A DNA stretch of 64,000 nt from assembly GCF_002854065.1 (NCBI RefSeq), contig NZ_CP024147.1. One strand, 5' to 3'. Position numbers and translations under genes: made by a program. Source of the DNA: Escherichia coli. GTDB taxonomy: Bacteria; Pseudomonadota; Gammaproteobacteria; Enterobacterales; Enterobacteriaceae. The stretch's first letter is position 1, and the number at the start of each line of letters is the position of its first letter. The notes below the pieces were generated by a model. The model saw nothing but the letters and a program-made list of their open reading frames with translations, searched no databases and was not told the origin of the DNA. Below, piece by piece: positions 3,058 to 52,943 of this stretch.

Positions 3058-3134
3058 TGGTGCATCCGGGAGGATTCGAACCTCCGACCGCTCGGTTCGT
3101 AGCCGAGTACTCTATCCAGCTGAGCTACGGATGC
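3058..3134 (-). tRNA. argQ: tRNA-Arg (anticodon ACG)
   Basis: Reverse complement gives GCATCCGTAGCTCAGCTGGATAGAGTACTCGGCTACGAACCGAGCGGTCGGAGGTTCGAATCCTCCCGGATGCACCA; copy name assigned by order only. Confidence 0.93.
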
Positions 3135-3236
3135 ATCGGGAAAATTTATTTTACTGCTGATATTGATATCGCTACTAAAGCCATATCAAATAAGAAAATC
3201 CATCTTAACCATCATCACTGATGATTACGGAGAATA

Positions 3237-3313
3237 TGGTGCATCCGGGAGGATTCGAACCTCCGACCGCTCGGTTCGTAGCCGAGTACTCTATCCAGCT
3301 GAGCTACGGATGC
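3237..3313 (-). tRNA. argZ: tRNA-Arg (anticodon ACG)
   Basis: Identical 77-nt tRNA-Arg sequence; copy name by order only. Confidence 0.93.
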
Positions 3314-3375
3314 ATCGGGAAATTTATTTTACTGCTGATATTGATACCGCTACTAAAGCCATATCAAGTAAGAGA

Positions 3376-3452
3376 TGGTGCATCCGGGAGGATTCGAACC
3401 TCCGACCGCTCGGTTCGTAGCCGAGTACTCTATCCAGCTGAGCTACGGATGC
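3376..3452 (-). tRNA. argY: tRNA-Arg (anticodon ACG)
   Basis: Identical 77-nt tRNA-Arg sequence; copy name by order only. Confidence 0.93.
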
Positions 3453-3535
3453 ATCGGGAAACTTACTTTACTGCAGATTTTTTGATACCGCTACTAAAGC
3501 CGTATCAAGTAAGAGATGGTGCATCCGGGAGGATT

Positions 3536-3651
3536 ACTCGCCTTGCGGCTCGCCCTTCGGGCCGTTGCTAAAGCAACGTTATCCTCCCTGGTGCCTGCGG
3601 TTAGTACCGCCACCTCTTCCATACCTTCATCGCTGAAGGTTACGGAGAATA
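3536..3651 (-). repeat. Repeat unit 2: truncated tRNA-Arg 3' end (3536-3554, 19 nt) fused to a ~97-bp hairpin-rich module, directly abutting the 3' end of the fourth tRNA-Arg
   Basis: TGGTGCATCCGGGAGGATT then divergence; same CGTTGCTAAAGCAACG / GCCCTTCGGGC module as unit 1. Confidence 0.7.
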
Positions 3652-3728
3652 TGGTGCATCCGGGAGGATTCGAACCTCCGACCGCTCGGTTCGTAGCCGA
3701 GTACTCTATCCAGCTGAGCTACGGATGC
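3652..3728 (-). tRNA. argV: tRNA-Arg (anticodon ACG)
   Basis: Identical 77-nt tRNA-Arg sequence, 3 bp from tRNA-Ser. Confidence 0.93.
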
Positions 3729-3731
3729 AAA

Positions 3732-3824
3732 TGGCGGTGAGGCGGGGATTCGAACCCCGGATGCAGCTTTTGACCGCATACTCCCTTAGCAGGGGAGCGC
3801 CTTCAGCCTCTCGGCCACCTCACC
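3732..3824 (-). tRNA. serV: tRNA-Ser (anticodon GCU)
   Basis: Reverse complement gives GGTGAGGTGGCCGAGAGGCTGAAGGCGCTCCCCTGCTAAGGGAGTATGCGGTCAAAAGCTGCATCCGGGGTTCGAATCCCCGCCTCACCGCCA with long variable arm. Confidence 0.93.
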
Positions 3825-27896: not shown

Positions 27897-28314
27897 TCAA
27901 AGAAACCATTCAGGCTTAACGCCAAATCGGGCTGAAAGTGCCTTAATGTGGGATATCGTCAGGGATCGTTGTCCAGACAAGATCTGGCTGACCAGGGATT
28001 TAGAACCGATTTCGTTCTTCAAATCCGCATAGTCAGATTATGTTGATCAATCAGCGTACGAAGTAACGCTACGCCAACCGGCATTGCCGCAACGGCTTTG
28101 TCGAACTCTGCAAACTTTTCGTTGTTGTTTTCATATTCTGCAATGCGGCTCGCCAGAAAGTCGATAAGTGGATTGGTGTCATCTTCTTCAATCAATATTC
28201 GACCAGTTCCAGTGCTTCACGATAATCATCTTCTGAGTCACTGCCTCCCAGAAAGGGGACTGCATTGACCAGTTCTCTTGTTGCTTTAACAGCGCGTGCA
28301 GCATTAGCAGTCAT
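27897..28314 (-). pseudogene. HigA-family (HTH_XRE) antitoxin-like gene disrupted by two 1-bp deletions
   Basis: Three consecutive frames encode MTANAARAVKATRELVNAVPFLGGSDSEDDYREALELVEY / IEEDDTNPLIDFLASRIAEYENNNEKFAEFDKAVAAMPVGVALLRTLIDQHNLTM / DLKNEIGSKSLVSQILSGQRSLTISHIKALSARFGVKPEWFL, together a ~139-aa HigA-like protein. Confidence 0.7.
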
Positions 28315-28549
28315 TCTTTGTTCTCTCTGTAGTATCGTATCAGACGCCCACTTTTCTAAAATGCCAGGTTTGCTCGGCATCATAAGGCATGGTCAGGAGA
28401 GGTTTCAGCGCCCGCTTTTGCGCATATTCGCTGTCACTCATTGGCAGATATTCGGTAAAGCTGGTGGCCTGTGCAGGCAGCACTAAGCTCAATAAAAAAG
28501 CGCACATCCCTGTTCTGATGTTCAATTCCCTGAATTCCCTAATGAAGAA

Positions 28550-46199: not shown

Positions 46200-46856
46200 A
46201 TGCCATCTACACGCTATCAAAAAATCAATGCCCATCACTATCGCCATATATGGGTCGTTGGTGATATTCATGGTGAATATCAGTTATTACAATCCCGCTT
46301 ACATCAACTCTCTTTTTTCCCCGAAACCGACTTACTTATTTCTGTCGGCGATAATATTGATCGTGGGCCGGAGAGTCTTGACGTCCTGCGCCTGCTAAAC
46401 CAGCCCTGGTTTATCTCCGTTAAAGGCAACCACGAAGCAATGGCGCTGGATGCGTTCGCGACCGGCGATGGCAATATGTGGCTTGCCAGCGGTGGTGACT
46501 GGTTCTTTGAGTTAAATGATATGGAACAAAAAGAAGCTATAGGTCTATTGCTGAAATTTCATCAACTTCCACATATTATTGAAATTACCAACGACATTAT
46601 AAAATATGTCATCGCACATGCGGATTATCCGGGCAATGAATATCTCTTTGGCGGACAAATAGCGGAGAGCGAATTACTTTGGCCTGTTGATCGTGTGCAG
46701 AAATCTCTTAATGGCGAGTTACAACAAATAAACGGCGCTGATTATTTTATATTTGGACATATGATGCTTGATAACATTCAGACGTTCGCTAACCAGATTT
46801 ATATTGATACCGGATCGCCGAAAAGCGGGCGGCTGTCATTTTATAAAATAAAGTAG
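46200..46856 (+). CDS. pphB: Serine/threonine protein phosphatase 2 (calcineurin-like)
   Basis: 218-aa ORF with GDIHG and GNHE metallophosphatase motifs. Confidence 0.93.
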   Translation: MPSTRYQKINAHHYRHIWVVGDIHGEYQLLQSRLHQLSFFPETDLLISVGDNIDRGPESLDVLRLLNQPWFISVKGNHEAMALDAFATGDGNMWLASGGDWFFELNDMEQKEAIGLLLKFHQLPHIIEITNDIIKYVIAHADYPGNEYLFGGQIAESELLWPVDRVQKSLNGELQQINGADYFIFGHMMLDNIQTFANQIYIDTGSPKSGRLSFYKIK

Positions 46857-46906: not shown

Positions 46907-47704
46907 TTATTCATTTTTCGCTACCAGCAAAGAGAGATCCTGCTTCGCCAGCGCGCGACTGGCACTCTCCGGCAAACCGTCGTCTGTAATAATCTGATCA
47001 AACTCGCTTAATGGTAACGCCAGCCATGTCGCCACCTGACCATATTTCGTCGCATCACAGACCAAAACTCGCTGGCGGCTGGCACTGGCAATCGCCCGTT
47101 TCACCGTGACTTTATCTTCCGCTGGCGTAGAAATCCCCCGCAAACTCCATGACGATGCAGAAATAAAAGCCTGATCAATCATCAGGCTGCGCAGCATGGT
47201 CGCAGCGGCTTCCCCGACACAGGAACGGTTTTCCCGACACACTGCACCGCCAGTGTGAATAATTGTGCAATTACTGTTGTCGAGCAAGTAGTCCGCAATA
47301 ACGAAATCGTTTGTGACCACAGTCAGTGACTCCATGTGAATCAGATGCTGTGCTATCGCTAACGTGGTCGTTCCCGCATCCAGATAGATACAACTTCCCG
47401 GCTGAACAAGACTTGCCGCCAGCTTGCCAATAGCCGCTTTTTGCGTCATTGCCAGCGCAGTTTTTACCTGATGAGAAGGTTCATGCGCCACGCGTCCCGG
47501 AGACTGGACGCCTCCGGATACCAGCACAACGGCTCCCTGCTGCTCCAGTTTTTGTAAATCCCGACGAATGGTCATATGTGACACATTCATTCTGTCCGTT
47601 AGTTCAGCAATACTGACAATGCCTTTTTCAGCTACCATCTCAAGGATGATTTGGCGACGCTCTACGGGTATCAACTTTTGCTCCTTCCTTTGTCCTGCTG
47701 ACAT
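46907..47704 (-). CDS. ygbI: DeoR-family transcriptional regulator
   Basis: ORF with N-terminal HTH (MTIRRDLQKLEQQG) and DeoR sugar-binding domain; start codon not resolved. Confidence 0.85.
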   Translation of the reverse strand: MSAGQRKEQKLIPVERRQIILEMVAEKGIVSIAELTDRMNVSHMTIRRDLQKLEQQGAVVLVSGGVQSPGRVAHEPSHQVKTALAMTQKAAIGKLAASLVQPGSCIYLDAGTTTLAIAQHLIHMESLTVVTNDFVIADYLLDNSNCTIIHTGGAVCRENRSCVGEAAATMLRSLMIDQAFISASSWSLRGISTPAEDKVTVKRAIASASRQRVLVCDATKYGQVATWLALPLSEFDQIITDDGLPESASRALAKQDLSLLVAKNE

Positions 47705-47869: not shown

Positions 47870-48777
47870 ATGAAAACGGGATCTAGTTTCATGTCGGTAT
47901 CGTTGGCTTAGGGTCAATGGGAATGGGAGCAGCACTGTCATGTGTCCGCGCAGGTCTTTCTACCTGGGGCGCAGACCTGAACAGCAATGCCTGCGCTACG
48001 TTGAAAGAGGCAGGTGCTTGCGGGGTTTCTGATAACGCCGCGACGTTTGCCGAAAAACTGGACGCTCTGCTGGTGCTGGTGGTCAATGCGGCCCAGGTTA
48101 AACAGGTGCTGTTTGGTGAAACAGGCGTTGCACAACATCTGAAACCCGGTACGGCAGTAATGGTTTCTTCCACTATCGCTAGTGCTGATGCGCAAGAAAT
48201 TGCTACCGCTCTGGCTGGATTCGATCTGGAAATGCTGGATGCGCCAGTTTCTGGTGGTGCAGTAAAAGCCGCTAACGGTGAAATGACTGTCATGGCCTCC
48301 GGTAGCGATATTGCCTTTGAACGACTGGCACCCGTGCTGGAAGCCGTTGCCGGAAAAGTTTATCGCATAGGTGCAGAACCGGGACTAGGTTCGACCGTAA
48401 AAATTATTCACCAGTTGTTAGCGGGCGTACATATTGCTGCCGGAGCCGAAGCGATGGCACTTGCAGCCCGTGCGGGGATCCCGCTGGATGTGATGTATGA
48501 CGTCGTGACCAATGCCGCCGGAAATTCCTGGATGTTCGAAAACCGGATGCGTCATGTGGTGGATGGCGATTACACCCCGCATTCAGCCGTCGATATTTTT
48601 GTTAAGGATCTTGGTCTGGTTGCCGATACAGCCAAAGCCCTGCACTTCCCGCTGCCATTGGCCTCAACAGCATTGAATATGTTCACCAGCGCCAGTAACG
48701 CGGGTTACGGGAAAGAAGACGATAGCGCAGTTATCAAGATTTTCTCTGGCATCACTCTACCGGGAGCGAAATCATGA
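47870..48777 (+). pseudogene. ygbJ: 3-hydroxyisobutyrate dehydrogenase-family oxidoreductase with a -1 frameshift near codon 6
   Basis: ATG at 47870 gives MKTGSSFMSVSLA* in one frame; the Rossmann motif VGIVGLGSMGMG is encoded in another frame directly upstream of the track ORF (47917), preceded by in-frame TAG at 47884-47886. Confidence 0.75.
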
Positions 48778-50036
48778 TCAAGATTGGCGTTATCGCCGAT
48801 GATTTTACCGGCGCGACGGATATCGCCAGTTTTCTGGTGGAAAACGGTCTACCAACGGTACAAATTAACGGTGTTCCAACAGGTAAAATGCCGGAAGCAA
48901 TCGACGCACTGGTGATCAGCCTGAAAACGCGTTCCTGTCCGGTGGTTGAAGCCACACAGCAATCGCTGGCGGCTCTGAGCTGGTTGCAACAGCAAGGTTG
49001 CAAACAGATCTATTTCAAATACTGCTCTACTTTCGACAGTACGGCTAAAGGTAATATCGGCCCGGTTACCGATGCATTAATGGATGCTCTCGACACGCCG
49101 TTTACGGTCTTCTCTCCGGCCCTGCCGGTCAACGGACGTACGGTTTATCAGGGGTATTTGTTCGTAATGAATCAACTGCTGGCCGAATCCGGGATGCGCC
49201 ATCACCCGGTAAATCCCATGACCGACAGCTATCTTCCCCGTCTGGTTGAAGCGCAATCCACAGGGCGCTGCGGCGTCGTTTCGGCACATGTTTTCGAACA
49301 AGGTGTGGATGCCGTTCGTCAAGAGCTGGCTCGCTTACAGCAAGAGGGCTACCGCTACGCGGTGCTTGATGCGCTGACCGAACACCATCTGGAAATTCAG
49401 GGAGAAGCCTTGCGCGATGCCCCACTGGTAACGGGCGGTTCTGGTCTGGCGATTGGCCTGGCCCGGCAGTGGGCGCAAGAAAACGGTAACCAGGCTCGCA
49501 AAGCAGGGCATCCGCTCGCTGGGCGCGGCGTAGTGCTCTCCGGTTCATGCTCTCAAATGACCAACCGCCAGGTGGCACATTACCGTCAAATTGCACCAGC
49601 CCGTGAAGTTGATGTGGCACGCTGCCTCTCAATTGAAACTCTGGCCGCTTATGCACACGAACTGGCAGAGTGGGTTCTGGGCCAGGAAAGTGTACTTGCT
49701 CCACTGGTTTTTGCCACCGCCAGCACTGACGCATTGGCAGCAATTCAACAGCAATACGGTGCACAAAAAGCCAGTCAGGCAGTAGAAACACTGTTTTCTC
49801 AACTAGCGGCGCGGTTAGCAGCGGAAGGCGTGACACGCTTTATTGTCGCAGGCGGTGAGACCTCCGGCGTAGTCACACAGAGCCTGGGAATAAAAGGGTT
49901 TCATATTGGCCCAACCATTTCCCCCGGCGTGCCGTGGGTAAACGCACTGGATAAGCCTGTCTCACTCGCCCTTAAATCTGGCAACTTCGGTGATGAAGCC
50001 TTTTTTTCACGAGCCCAAAGAGAGTTTTTATCATGA
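48774..50036 (+). CDS. ygbK: Four-carbon acid sugar kinase family protein
   Basis: 420-aa ORF in operon position, overlaps ygbJ by 4 bp. Confidence 0.85.
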   Translation: MIKIGVIADDFTGATDIASFLVENGLPTVQINGVPTGKMPEAIDALVISLKTRSCPVVEATQQSLAALSWLQQQGCKQIYFKYCSTFDSTAKGNIGPVTDALMDALDTPFTVFSPALPVNGRTVYQGYLFVMNQLLAESGMRHHPVNPMTDSYLPRLVEAQSTGRCGVVSAHVFEQGVDAVRQELARLQQEGYRYAVLDALTEHHLEIQGEALRDAPLVTGGSGLAIGLARQWAQENGNQARKAGHPLAGRGVVLSGSCSQMTNRQVAHYRQIAPAREVDVARCLSIETLAAYAHELAEWVLGQESVLAPLVFATASTDALAAIQQQYGAQKASQAVETLFSQLAARLAAEGVTRFIVAGGETSGVVTQSLGIKGFHIGPTISPGVPWVNALDKPVSLALKSGNFGDEAFFSRAQREFLS

Positions 50037-50671
50037 GCGATTTCGCAAAAGTAGAGCAGTCTTTGCGAGAGGAGATGACGCGGATTGCCAGTTCATTCTT
50101 TCAGCGCGGCTATGCAACCGGTTCGGCTGGCAATCTGTCGCTGCTTTTACCTGACGGGAATTTACTGGCGACACCGACAGGTTCATGCCTGGGCAATCTC
50201 GAGCCGCAGCGGCTTTCCAAAGTCGCCGCGGATGGCGAATGGTTAAGTGGTGACAAACCCTCGAAAGAGGTGCTCTTTCATCTGGCGCTGTATCGCAACA
50301 ATCCGCGCTGTAAAGCGGTGGTGCATTTGCACAGCACATGGTCGACGGCGCTTTCCTGCCTGCAAGGGCTGGACAGCAGCAACGTTATTCGTCCGTTCAC
50401 ACCATACGTGGTGATGCGGATGGGAAATGTCCCGCTGGTGCCTTATTACCGACCGGGCGATAAACGCATCGCACAGGATCTGGCGGAACTGGCAGCAGAC
50501 AATCAGGCTTTTTTACTGGCAAATCATGGCCCAGTGGTTTGCGGTGAAAGCCTGCAAGAAGCCGCCAACAATATGGAAGAGCTGGAGGAAACGGCAAAGC
50601 TGATTTTTATTCTCGGTGACCGCCCGATCCGTTATCTGACCGCAGGTGAAATTGCGGAATTAAGGAATTAA
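50033..50671 (+). CDS. ygbL: Class II aldolase/adducin-family protein
   Basis: 212-aa ORF with class II aldolase fold signature (HxH region). Confidence 0.85.
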
Positions 50672-50675
50672 TGCA

Positions 50676-51452
50676 ATGCCTCGTTTTGCAGCTAATTTAT
50701 CCATGATGTTCACCGAAGTGCCTTTTATTGAACGCTTCGCCGCAGCGCGAAAAGCCGGGTTCGATGCTGTGGAATTTCTGTTTCCCTATAACTACTCCAC
50801 CCTGCAAATCCAAAAGCAACTGGAGCAAAACCATCTGACACTGGCGCTGTTCAATACCGCTCCCGGAGATATTAATGCGGGGGAATGGGGATTATCCGCC
50901 CTTCCCGGACGTGAGCACGAAGCACACGCAGACATCGACCTGGCACTGGAATATGCATTGGCGCTCAATTGTGAACAAGTCCATGTAATGGCAGGCGTCG
51001 TGCCCGCTGCCGAAGATGCTGAACGGTACCGGGCAGTATTTATCGATAATCTCCGCTACGCTGCCGACCGCTTTGCGCCACACGGCAAGCGAATATTAGT
51101 TGAAGCACTCAGCCCCGGCATTAAGCCTCATTATCTCTTCTCCAGCCAGTATCAGGCACTGGCTATTGTTGAAGAAGTTGCGCGAGATAACGTGTTTATT
51201 CAACTAGATACTTTTCATGCGCAAAAAGTAGATGGCAACCTGACGCATTTAATCCGCGACTACGCCGGGAAATATGCGCACGTACAAATTGCCGGACTAC
51301 CTGATCGACATGAACCGGACGATGGAGAAATCAACTATCCGTGGCTGTTCCGCCTGTTCGATGAGGTGGGATATCAGGGCTGGATCGGTTGTGAATATAA
51401 ACCTCGTGGCCTCACCGAAGAAGGACTTGGCTGGTTTGACGCCTGGCGCTAA
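50676..51452 (+). CDS. ygbM: Xylose isomerase-like TIM-barrel protein (hydroxypyruvate isomerase family)
   Basis: 258-aa [24 protein letters not shown]. Confidence 0.85.
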
Positions 51453-51540: not shown

Positions 51541-52836
51541 ATGTCCACAATTACATTGTTATGCATTGCGTTAACTGGCGTAATCATGCTGTTGCTGCTG
51601 GTCATCAAGGCAAAGGTACAACCATTCGTTGCTCTGCTCCTCGTCAGCCTGTTAGTCGCACTTGCGGCGGGTATACCGGCGGGCGAAGTGGGTAAAGTGA
51701 TGATCGCCGGGATGGGCGGTGTGCTTGGTTCCGTCACTATTATTATTGGTCTGGGCGCTATGCTGGGGCGTATGATCGAACACTCTGGTGGTGCAGAGTC
51801 ACTGGCTAATTATTTCAGTCGCAAGTTAGGTGACAAACGAACTATCGCTGCGCTGACTCTGGCAGCGTTCTTCCTCGGTATTCCCGTCTTCTTTGATGTC
51901 GGCTTTATTATTCTTGCGCCAATCATTTACGGTTTTGCCAAGGTTGCCAAAATATCGCCACTCAAATTTGGCCTGCCTGTCGCTGGGATCATGCTAACTG
52001 TACATGTGGCGGTACCGCCGCATCCAGGCCCTGTCGCCGCAGCAGGGTTACTCCACGCAGACATCGGCTGGCTAACCATCATCGGTATTGCGATTTCTAT
52101 TCCCGTAGGGATTGTTGGCTACTTTGCAGCGAAAATAATCAATAAGCGCCAATATGCGATGTCGGTGGAAGTACTGGAACAGATGCAACTGGCTCCGGCC
52201 AGTGAGGAAGGCGCGACAAAATTAAGCGATAAAATAAATCCACCGGGCGTCGCGCTGGTCACCTCGCTAATTGTTATTCCTATCGCGATTATCATGGCGG
52301 GTACGGTTTCCGCAACACTGATGCCGCCTTCGCATCCCCTGCTTGGTACGCTACAGCTGATCGGCTCACCAATGGTAGCTCTAATGATTGCGCTGGTGCT
52401 GGCATTCTGGTTATTGGCTTTACGTCGCGGCTGGAGCTTACAACACACCAGCGACATTATGGGCTCAGCGCTTCCTACTGCGGCGGTAGTGATTTTGGTT
52501 ACTGGTGCTGGAGGGGTATTTGGCAAAGTGCTGGTGGAATCGGGCGTCGGCAAAGCCCTTGCCAACATGTTACAAATGATTGACCTGCCTCTGTTACCAG
52601 CCGCATTTATTATTTCACTGGCGCTGCGTGCATCGCAGGGGTCAGCAACCGTAGCAATACTGACAACCGGCGGGTTACTCTCAGAAGCGGTGATGGGATT
52701 GAATCCGATTCAGTGCGTATTGGTGACGCTGGCAGCCTGCTTTGGTGGGCTTGGTGCGTCACATATTAATGACTCAGGGTTCTGGATTGTGACCAAATAT
52801 CTGGGATTGTCGGTAGCAGACGGTCTGAAAACCTAG
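51541..52836 (+). CDS. ygbN: GntP-family permease, apparently truncated by an in-frame TAG
   Basis: 431-aa polytopic ORF; the 22 codons after the TAG (TVLTTILGFTGFLITWCVWAVI, ending TGA at 52903-52905) are in frame and hydrophobic. Confidence 0.8.
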   Translation: MSTITLLCIALTGVIMLLLLVIKAKVQPFVALLLVSLLVALAAGIPAGEVGKVMIAGMGGVLGSVTIIIGLGAMLGRMIEHSGGAESLANYFSRKLGDKRTIAALTLAAFFLGIPVFFDVGFIILAPIIYGFAKVAKISPLKFGLPVAGIMLTVHVAVPPHPGPVAAAGLLHADIGWLTIIGIAISIPVGIVGYFAAKIINKRQYAMSVEVLEQMQLAPASEEGATKLSDKINPPGVALVTSLIVIPIAIIMAGTVSATLMPPSHPLLGTLQLIGSPMVALMIALVLAFWLLALRRGWSLQHTSDIMGSALPTAAVVILVTGAGGVFGKVLVESGVGKALANMLQMIDLPLLPAAFIISLALRASQGSATVAILTTGGLLSEAVMGLNPIQCVLVTLAACFGGLGASHINDSGFWIVTKYLGLSVADGLKT

Positions 52837-52912
52837 ACAGTGTTAACGACCATTCTCGGTTTTACCGGATTCTTAATTACCTGGTGCGTATGGGCGGTAA
52901 TTTGACCTTAAT

Positions 52913-52943
52913 AAAAAGGTCCGATGAGCATCGGACCTTTTAT
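52913..52943. terminator. Bidirectional terminator between ygbN and the convergent decarboxylase operon
   Basis: AAAAAGGTCCGATGagcaTCGGACCTTTTATTT, stem-loop flanked by A-run and T-run. Confidence 0.75.

Follow-up and report, generated by a model that had tools for sequence, protein, structure and literature searches.

The closest described relative of the gene considered here is ygbN of Escherichia coli K-12, whose older name is o454 and which lends that name to the polymorphic o454-nlpD region within mutS-rpoS (PMC4209514). The gene has been described as a putative D-2,4-dihydroxybutyrate transporter (PMC12709889), and its operon is normally repressed by YgbI (bioRxiv 10.1101/2021.06.10.447994; PMC6452873), for which ChIP-exo and derepression data have been reported (bioRxiv 10.1101/2021.06.10.447994). 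The literature on ygbN and threonate serves here as context only; neither a transport assay of YgbN nor a study of a C-terminally truncated YgbN was found in it. In a K-12-like genome the gene spans 1365 bp and codes for 454 amino acids. Two further systems are relevant for comparison. Amber hot spots at Dcm sites in lacI are said to have been described by Coulondre, Miller, Farabaugh and Gilbert in 1978, and deamination of 5-methylcytosine at Dcm CCWGG sequences is the classical mechanism of such hot spots. In elevator-type carriers, the final helix is part of the mobile transport domain, where it comes next after the second re-entrant hairpin.

The ygbN locus and its in-frame amber codon

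The stretch of E. coli DNA analysed here (64 kb in all, hereafter the window) carries mutS, pphB, ygbI, ltnD (ygbJ), otnK (ygbK), otnC (ygbL), ygbM and ygbN in this order, followed by convergent hydroxyarylic acid decarboxylase genes, a MarR regulator and rpoS. This ygbN-rpoS arrangement is 'pattern IV' of PMC4209514 and differs from the K-12 locus, where rpoS is directly downstream of ygbN and no decarboxylase genes intervene. A 401-base query around the TAG site has a chromosomal match, annotated as ygbN, GntP family transporter, in 4862 of 5426 complete E. coli genomes. The window and the K-12-like locus are 97.9% identical across 8.3 kb, the gene occupies the same place between ygbM and the rpoS side, and over about 185 nt the two 3' ends are the same except for two bases, of which the TAG accounts for one; by locus position and near-identity the gene is the orthologue of K-12 ygbN. 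When the TAG is read through, the 454-residue protein matches the Pfam family PF02447 (GntP_permease) with 515.2 bits (cut-off 22.5) over residues 5-453, corresponding to profile positions 2-439 of 440, and has weaker matches to the CitMHS and DctM models. The product that is actually encoded ends at residue 431 and lacks a complete PF02447 domain with its C-terminal helix. PapM-32-1 is the nearest relative with TGG, and its YgbN is one residue off the read-through protein.

The features of the ygbN site, by window position, are as follows.

51541-52905, plus strand: ygbN (o454/b2740), probable pseudogene of a GntP-family permease gene, 454 codons with the TAG read as Trp
51541-52836, plus strand: shortened ygbN ORF from the ORF list, the actual coding part, 431 amino acids plus TAG
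52832-52836, no strand assigned: former Dcm site by sequence context, CCTGG in the wild type and now CCTAG
52834-52836, plus strand: premature amber TAG, TGG (Trp432) in intact alleles, changed base 52835 (G to A)
52837-52905, plus strand: orphaned 22 codons and native TGA, the remainder of the last transmembrane helix
52914-52941, no strand assigned: G+C-rich hairpin between an A-run and a T-run, RNA fold of -17.3 kcal/mol, z = -4.3

Translation of 51541-52905 gives 431 residues, a stop, TVLTTILGFTGFLITWCVWAVI and TGA. The first-pass annotation, made from the letters of the window, had claimed that the TAG ends the ORF early and is followed in frame by 22 sense codons up to a TGA (52903-52905), that the read-through product has the length of K-12 YgbN, and that the TAG stands for a TGG Trp codon. 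The first claim is borne out by the ORF list and the translation, and the second agrees with the K-12-like gene. As to the third, alignment to the K-12-like genome identifies the codon as Trp432, TGG there and TAG here, with the 69 bases up to the TGA otherwise identical. To run for 22 codons without a stop is nothing unusual, the chance being (61/64)^22, about 0.35, but the stretch is meaningful here because the 69 bases after the TAG match the 3' end of intact ygbN. Moreover, position 432 is Trp in 120 of 120 close YgbN sequences. An in-frame stop thus stands where orthologues have a sense codon, and the old frame and native TGA are still recognisable. Our assessment is that ygbN in the window is very probably a recent pseudogene, generated by a single G-to-A transition at 52835 that turned the TGG of Trp432 into an amber codon.

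The hairpin at 52914-52941 lies just past the native TGA and not past the TAG. It was missed by a simple terminator scan and became visible upon folding of the region, where 0 of 200 shuffles folded as well. It is probably a bidirectional terminator common to ygbN and the convergent decarboxylase subunit D gene. The TAG would be expected to have no polar effect, because ygbN is the last gene in its unit and the next gene is convergent.

Distribution and mutational origin of the TAG allele

We searched for the allele with 55-mers that have the variable base in the middle, which makes each 28-base megablast seed span the SNP. The TAG version is present in 2 of the 5426 complete E. coli genomes, CUWW06 (NZ_CP182139.1; wastewater, Thailand) and 100416 (NZ_CM128593.1; stool, the Gambia), and the TGG version in 4572 (about 84%). 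Hence the situation that the first-pass annotation had named as contrary to its reading, with many orthologues ending at the same TAG, is not what these genomes hold. PGAP labels the gene in both TAG genomes as 'GntP family transporter, pseudo, internal stop'; the ygbN TAG is an ordinary nonsense pseudogene already flagged by the NCBI pipeline in sister genomes. The TAG allele of CUWW06 and 100416 is identical to that of the window and the flanks are nearly identical, the difference being that ltnD is intact in both, whereas the window carries an extra 1-bp ltnD deletion. The TAG genomes differ from the window at 3-8 positions in 14-18 kb; for CUWW06 the count over 18 kb is three (2 substitutions, 1 deletion), and it rises to about 11 substitutions plus 2 deletions when 62 kb are compared. 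With so few differences, the window is therefore a third member of the CUWW06/100416 lineage.

Two other differences within this lineage were also seen. The second 1-bp deletion relative to CUWW06 (GG to G) is at window position 28032, in a helix-turn-helix gene (about 27897-28383, minus strand) between ascB and hycI that is already frameshifted in CUWW06 according to PGAP; the deletion splits the 99-aa part of this gene into 58 and 41 aa. In 100416, an IS1B element interrupts pphB (1409-2106 of its retrieved contig), which is intact in the window (46200-46856) and in CUWW06.

The base change falls in a sequence context that suggests how it arose. The wild-type sequence AACCTGGAC has become AACCTAGAC in the window. 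The altered base is G4 of CCTGG, whose partner on the minus strand is the inner, methylated C of CCAGG; Trp432 thus presents the sequence of a Dcm hot spot, i.e., CCWGG with a transition at the inner-cytosine base pair. Deamination of 5-methylcytosine on the template strand, at the inner C of CCAGG, would give exactly CCTAG, and the resulting mismatch would have escaped very-short-patch repair. The site resembles the lacI-type hot spots in its CCTGG wild type and in its amber product with a CTAG, which Vsr repair normally prevents. It also resembles them in that W432* recurs independently. A TAG-carrying Logan contig (L010, from SRR10830771) shows 259 differences from the window in 13296 positions, 11 of them at synonymous sites of ygbN, and exactly one, the TAG, from the intact genome CFSAN061768. 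Being one base off CFSAN061768 and 259 off the window, it therefore represents an independent origin of W432*. That L010 might be an assembly chimera was considered and ruled out, given L010-specific SNPs 26-29 bp from the TAG and the single-base difference from an intact genome. In contrast to the lacI-type sites, methylation and deamination at W432 are read from the sequence context, and the excess of amber alleles over non-Dcm Trp codons is no more than suggestive. Both dcm and vsr are located outside the 64-kb window.

Other Trp codons of ygbN provide a comparison. The gene contains three Dcm sites, and only those at W432 and W448 are able to yield a stop codon. TAG at W448 occurs in 4 complete genomes on at least two backgrounds (one K-12-like, three ST131-type). 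The W448* carriers are 2018-11-1BCC and three further strains, among them the O25b:H4-ST131 strain 4433; in these three, the match stops at the start of the ST131-type downstream region. At the non-Dcm W298, TAG is found in 3 genomes (ET76, EC6 and ES1), and 0 of the complete E. coli genomes have an amber codon at the non-Dcm W177, W290, W415 or W451. A 176-aa product ending just before W177 is present in 52 contigs; for truncations on the commonest allele background, most protein look-ups gave no hit, and TAG and TGA are indistinguishable in such look-ups. Amber alleles therefore occur at 2 of 2 Dcm and 1 of 5 non-Dcm Trp codons, a difference short of significance (one-sided Fisher p about 0.14). 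The idea that amber alleles are found at no Trp codon other than the two in Dcm sites was rejected in view of W298* in 3 genomes and the product ending before W177, and since amber alleles exist outside Dcm sites, we infer rather than assert the hot-spot origin. On balance, and with some reserve, we favour 5-methylcytosine deamination at CCTGG/CCAGG as the source of W432*. The TAG allele would then be one more natural case in line with the Dcm amber hot spot of the textbooks, and not a discovery.

The repeated appearance of null-type alleles could also mean that gene loss is adaptive here, with selection acting in favour of strains without YgbN, instead of reflecting neutral decay at a mutational hot spot. 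W432* arose twice, W448* is found on at least two backgrounds, W298* in 3 genomes and the pre-W177 product in 52 contigs, about 10% of the genomes are without ygbN, and the window strain appears to have lost ltnD as well. On the other hand, about 84% of the complete genomes retain the intact TGG context and every null allele is rare. Furthermore, the operon is normally repressed by YgbI, and relaxed constraint is therefore enough to produce the pattern with no need for selection. We regard adaptive loss as possible but unlikely.

Predicted consequence for the permease

A first homologue search returned near-identical E. coli YgbN only, which was uninformative on family conservation, and representatives of 50% clusters were used instead. 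The resulting family set consists of 95 near-full-length GntP representatives with 27-54% identity to YgbN, shorter entries having been left out. From column 432 onward there are 0 gaps among these 95 sequences, and the tail past this column is at least 21 residues long in 95/95 (median 22). Column 432 itself is W in 71 and Gln in 4 of the 95, and column 433 is T or S in 92. The most conserved motif of the family, S407-H-x-N-D-x-G-F-W415 (the SHxNDSGFW hairpin), directly precedes the terminal helix.

Searching the PDB by sequence yielded no YgbN relative, and an AlphaFold2 model built on the family alignment (mean pLDDT 92.3, pTM 0.90) was used together with Foldseek. In this model, the terminal helix comprises residues 425-453 (pLDDT about 95-98), and the TAG leaves 7 of its 29 residues. 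Together with the span of the GntP_permease match and the tail found in all 95 representatives, this upholds the first-pass claim that the last transmembrane segment is removed. Foldseek relates the model to elevator-type carriers, namely the DASS proteins NaS1, NaDC3 and VcINDY, the TRAP transporter SiaQM, and the AbgT proteins MtrF and YdaH, with a likeness over the whole chain (probability 1.00, TM 0.45-0.67); sequence identity of these carriers to YgbN is 12-17%, and the role given here to the last helix is taken from them by analogy. As the last helix of YgbN comes after the conserved SHxNDSGFW re-entrant hairpin, a 431-residue product would be unable to complete the transport domain of such a carrier. 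From conservation and the predicted model, we infer that the 431-residue product would be inactive or degraded, leaving the strain without YgbN-mediated uptake of four-carbon sugar acids.

Other natural variants of YgbN were noted at residues 324 and 325. In the YgbN of PapM-32-1, a glycine that at least 90% of the family representatives conserve is replaced (G324R), and G325R or G325E occurs in other natural E. coli YgbN variants. These substitutions may likewise point to relaxed constraint on ygbN.

It is very improbable that ygbN still works, either because the 431-aa protein is active without its last helix or because a split transporter is made by re-initiation at a GTG. The allele does persist in many samples: the exact 431-aa product is found in 176 contigs (257 blocks) of public collections (e.g., EZJ84098.1, KEO30873.1 and CAM6448088.1), which comprise isolates, gut metagenomes and Logan assemblies, from NCBI, ENA, JGI and Logan. 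In addition, the 69 bases downstream of the TAG and the other operon genes are undecayed in 8 TAG-carrying contigs. Apart from the ltnD frameshift of the window, the operon shows no further decay, which fits a recent event and would also fit a retained function of the truncated allele. However, divergence within the lineage is only about 0.03-0.08%, and the absence of further decay therefore carries no weight. Against activity of the shortened protein, 0 of the 95 aligned representatives end before the terminal helix, in a set chosen to be near-full-length, and W298*, W448*, the products ending before W177 and the absence of the whole gene from some genomes indicate that ygbN is dispensable. 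As for re-initiation, an in-frame GTG (52840-52842) does lie 3 nt past the TAG, within the orphaned tail, but no Shine-Dalgarno-like sequence was seen upstream of it. The specific scheme in which translation restarts at this GTG and the 21-residue helix peptide so made joins up again with the 431-residue body has a slimmer chance still; if true, it would account for the persistence of the allele in many samples alongside an otherwise intact operon.

Two further explanations would leave the strain with a full-length protein, and to both we assign a negligible probability. The amber codon could be read through by a suppressor tRNA or by near-cognate decoding, and the Gln found at column 432 in 4 of the 95 representatives indicates that a supE-type W432Q might be tolerated. 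Amber suppressors have reportedly been encountered in environmental coliforms, and basal UAG read-through in E. coli is low. The tRNAs within the 64-kb window are four of the Arg-ACG and one of the Ser-GCT type, with no CUA anticodon among them, and the sequence has no sign of programmed recoding. These tRNA genes, four tRNA-Arg(ACG) and one tRNA-Ser(GCT) at 3058-3824 with repeated spacers, form the usual argQZYV-serV arrangement. The other explanation, that the TAG is a sequencing or assembly error in a strain that is truly TGG, can point to the two 1-bp deletions of the window relative to CUWW06, which indicate that the window is not error-proof, but base 52835 is a substitution outside any homopolymer and the same base recurs in the complete assemblies of CUWW06 (Thailand) and 100416 (the Gambia), which are independent of each other, and in the 176 contigs. 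The TAG allele is real, not an assembly artefact, and is already in the databases.

The remaining ygbI-ygbN operon and dispensability of ygbN

The other genes of the operon in the window are as follows.

46907-47674, minus strand: ygbI, DeoR-type repressor of the operon, intact (coordinates transferred from the CUWW06 annotation)
47870-48777, plus strand: ltnD (ygbJ, L-threonate dehydrogenase), frameshifted by a 1-bp deletion between 47884 and 47885, codon 6
48774-50036, plus strand: otnK, intact, 420 aa, full expected length
50033-50671, plus strand: otnC, intact, 212 aa, full expected length
50676-51452, plus strand: ygbM/otnI, intact, 258 aa, full expected length

A frameshift in ygbJ, which had also been claimed from the letters of the window, is indeed there. 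The missing base is a G (TCTGAG to TCTAG), and the new frame stops at a TAG at 47909-47911. The next in-frame ATG of ltnD, at 47917, is past the GxGxxG NAD-binding motif (GIVGLGSMG), and a product restarted from it would thus be predicted to lack the dinucleotide-binding motif. The deletion junction occurs in 0 of the 5426 complete genomes and in 0 of the 8 TAG-carrying contigs, and all eight of these retrieved contigs encode a 302-aa ltnD product. As the deletion is absent from the TAG relatives, the sequences would place the ygbN lesion first, in the ancestor of the lineage, and the ltnD lesion later and in the window strain only, unless the latter is an assembly error; alternatively, that is, the 1-bp deletion could be an assembly error rather than a real lesion. 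Both lesions in the operon (47882-47886 and 52833-52836) create a CTAG tetranucleotide, of which the window has 12 in 64 kb, compared to 145 CCWGG sequences. The creation of CTAG by the ltnD deletion is probably a coincidence.

The first-pass view that the whole locus is decaying stands as far as the two lesions in ygbN and ltnD are concerned, but it does not extend to ygbI, otnK, otnC and ygbM, which are intact; the lengths of otnK, otnC and ygbM agree with the annotation of CUWW06 and 100416. Two points of annotation were noted along the operon. The 420-aa OtnK of the window (48774-50036) and of most other strains overlaps otnC, whereas OtnK in the K-12-like genome (4176-5342 of its retrieved contig) has 388 aa and is followed by a 91-bp gap before otnC; the K-12 OtnK copy appears to be C-terminally shortened. 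In each of the four annotated genomes that were inspected, PGAP gives the ygbM gene (50676-51452 in the window) the name 'HPr family phosphocarrier protein', while the recorded Pfam family of its product is AP_endonuc_2, a xylose-isomerase-like TIM barrel. The name looks like a slip for a hydroxypyruvate-isomerase-family protein (2-oxo-tetronate isomerase).

By the 401-base query, about 10% of the complete E. coli genomes are without ygbN, and the ygbN-less arrangement corresponds to pattern I of PMC4209514. Overall, ygbN seems to be dispensable in E. coli. The lineage represented by the window, CUWW06 and 100416 is predicted to be unable to import the substrates of YgbN, which are thought to be four-carbon sugar acids. 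The window strain would additionally be without L-threonate dehydrogenase, the codon-6 frameshift in ltnD also removing the first enzyme of the pathway. Beyond the annotation of the strain, the truncation of ygbN matters little.
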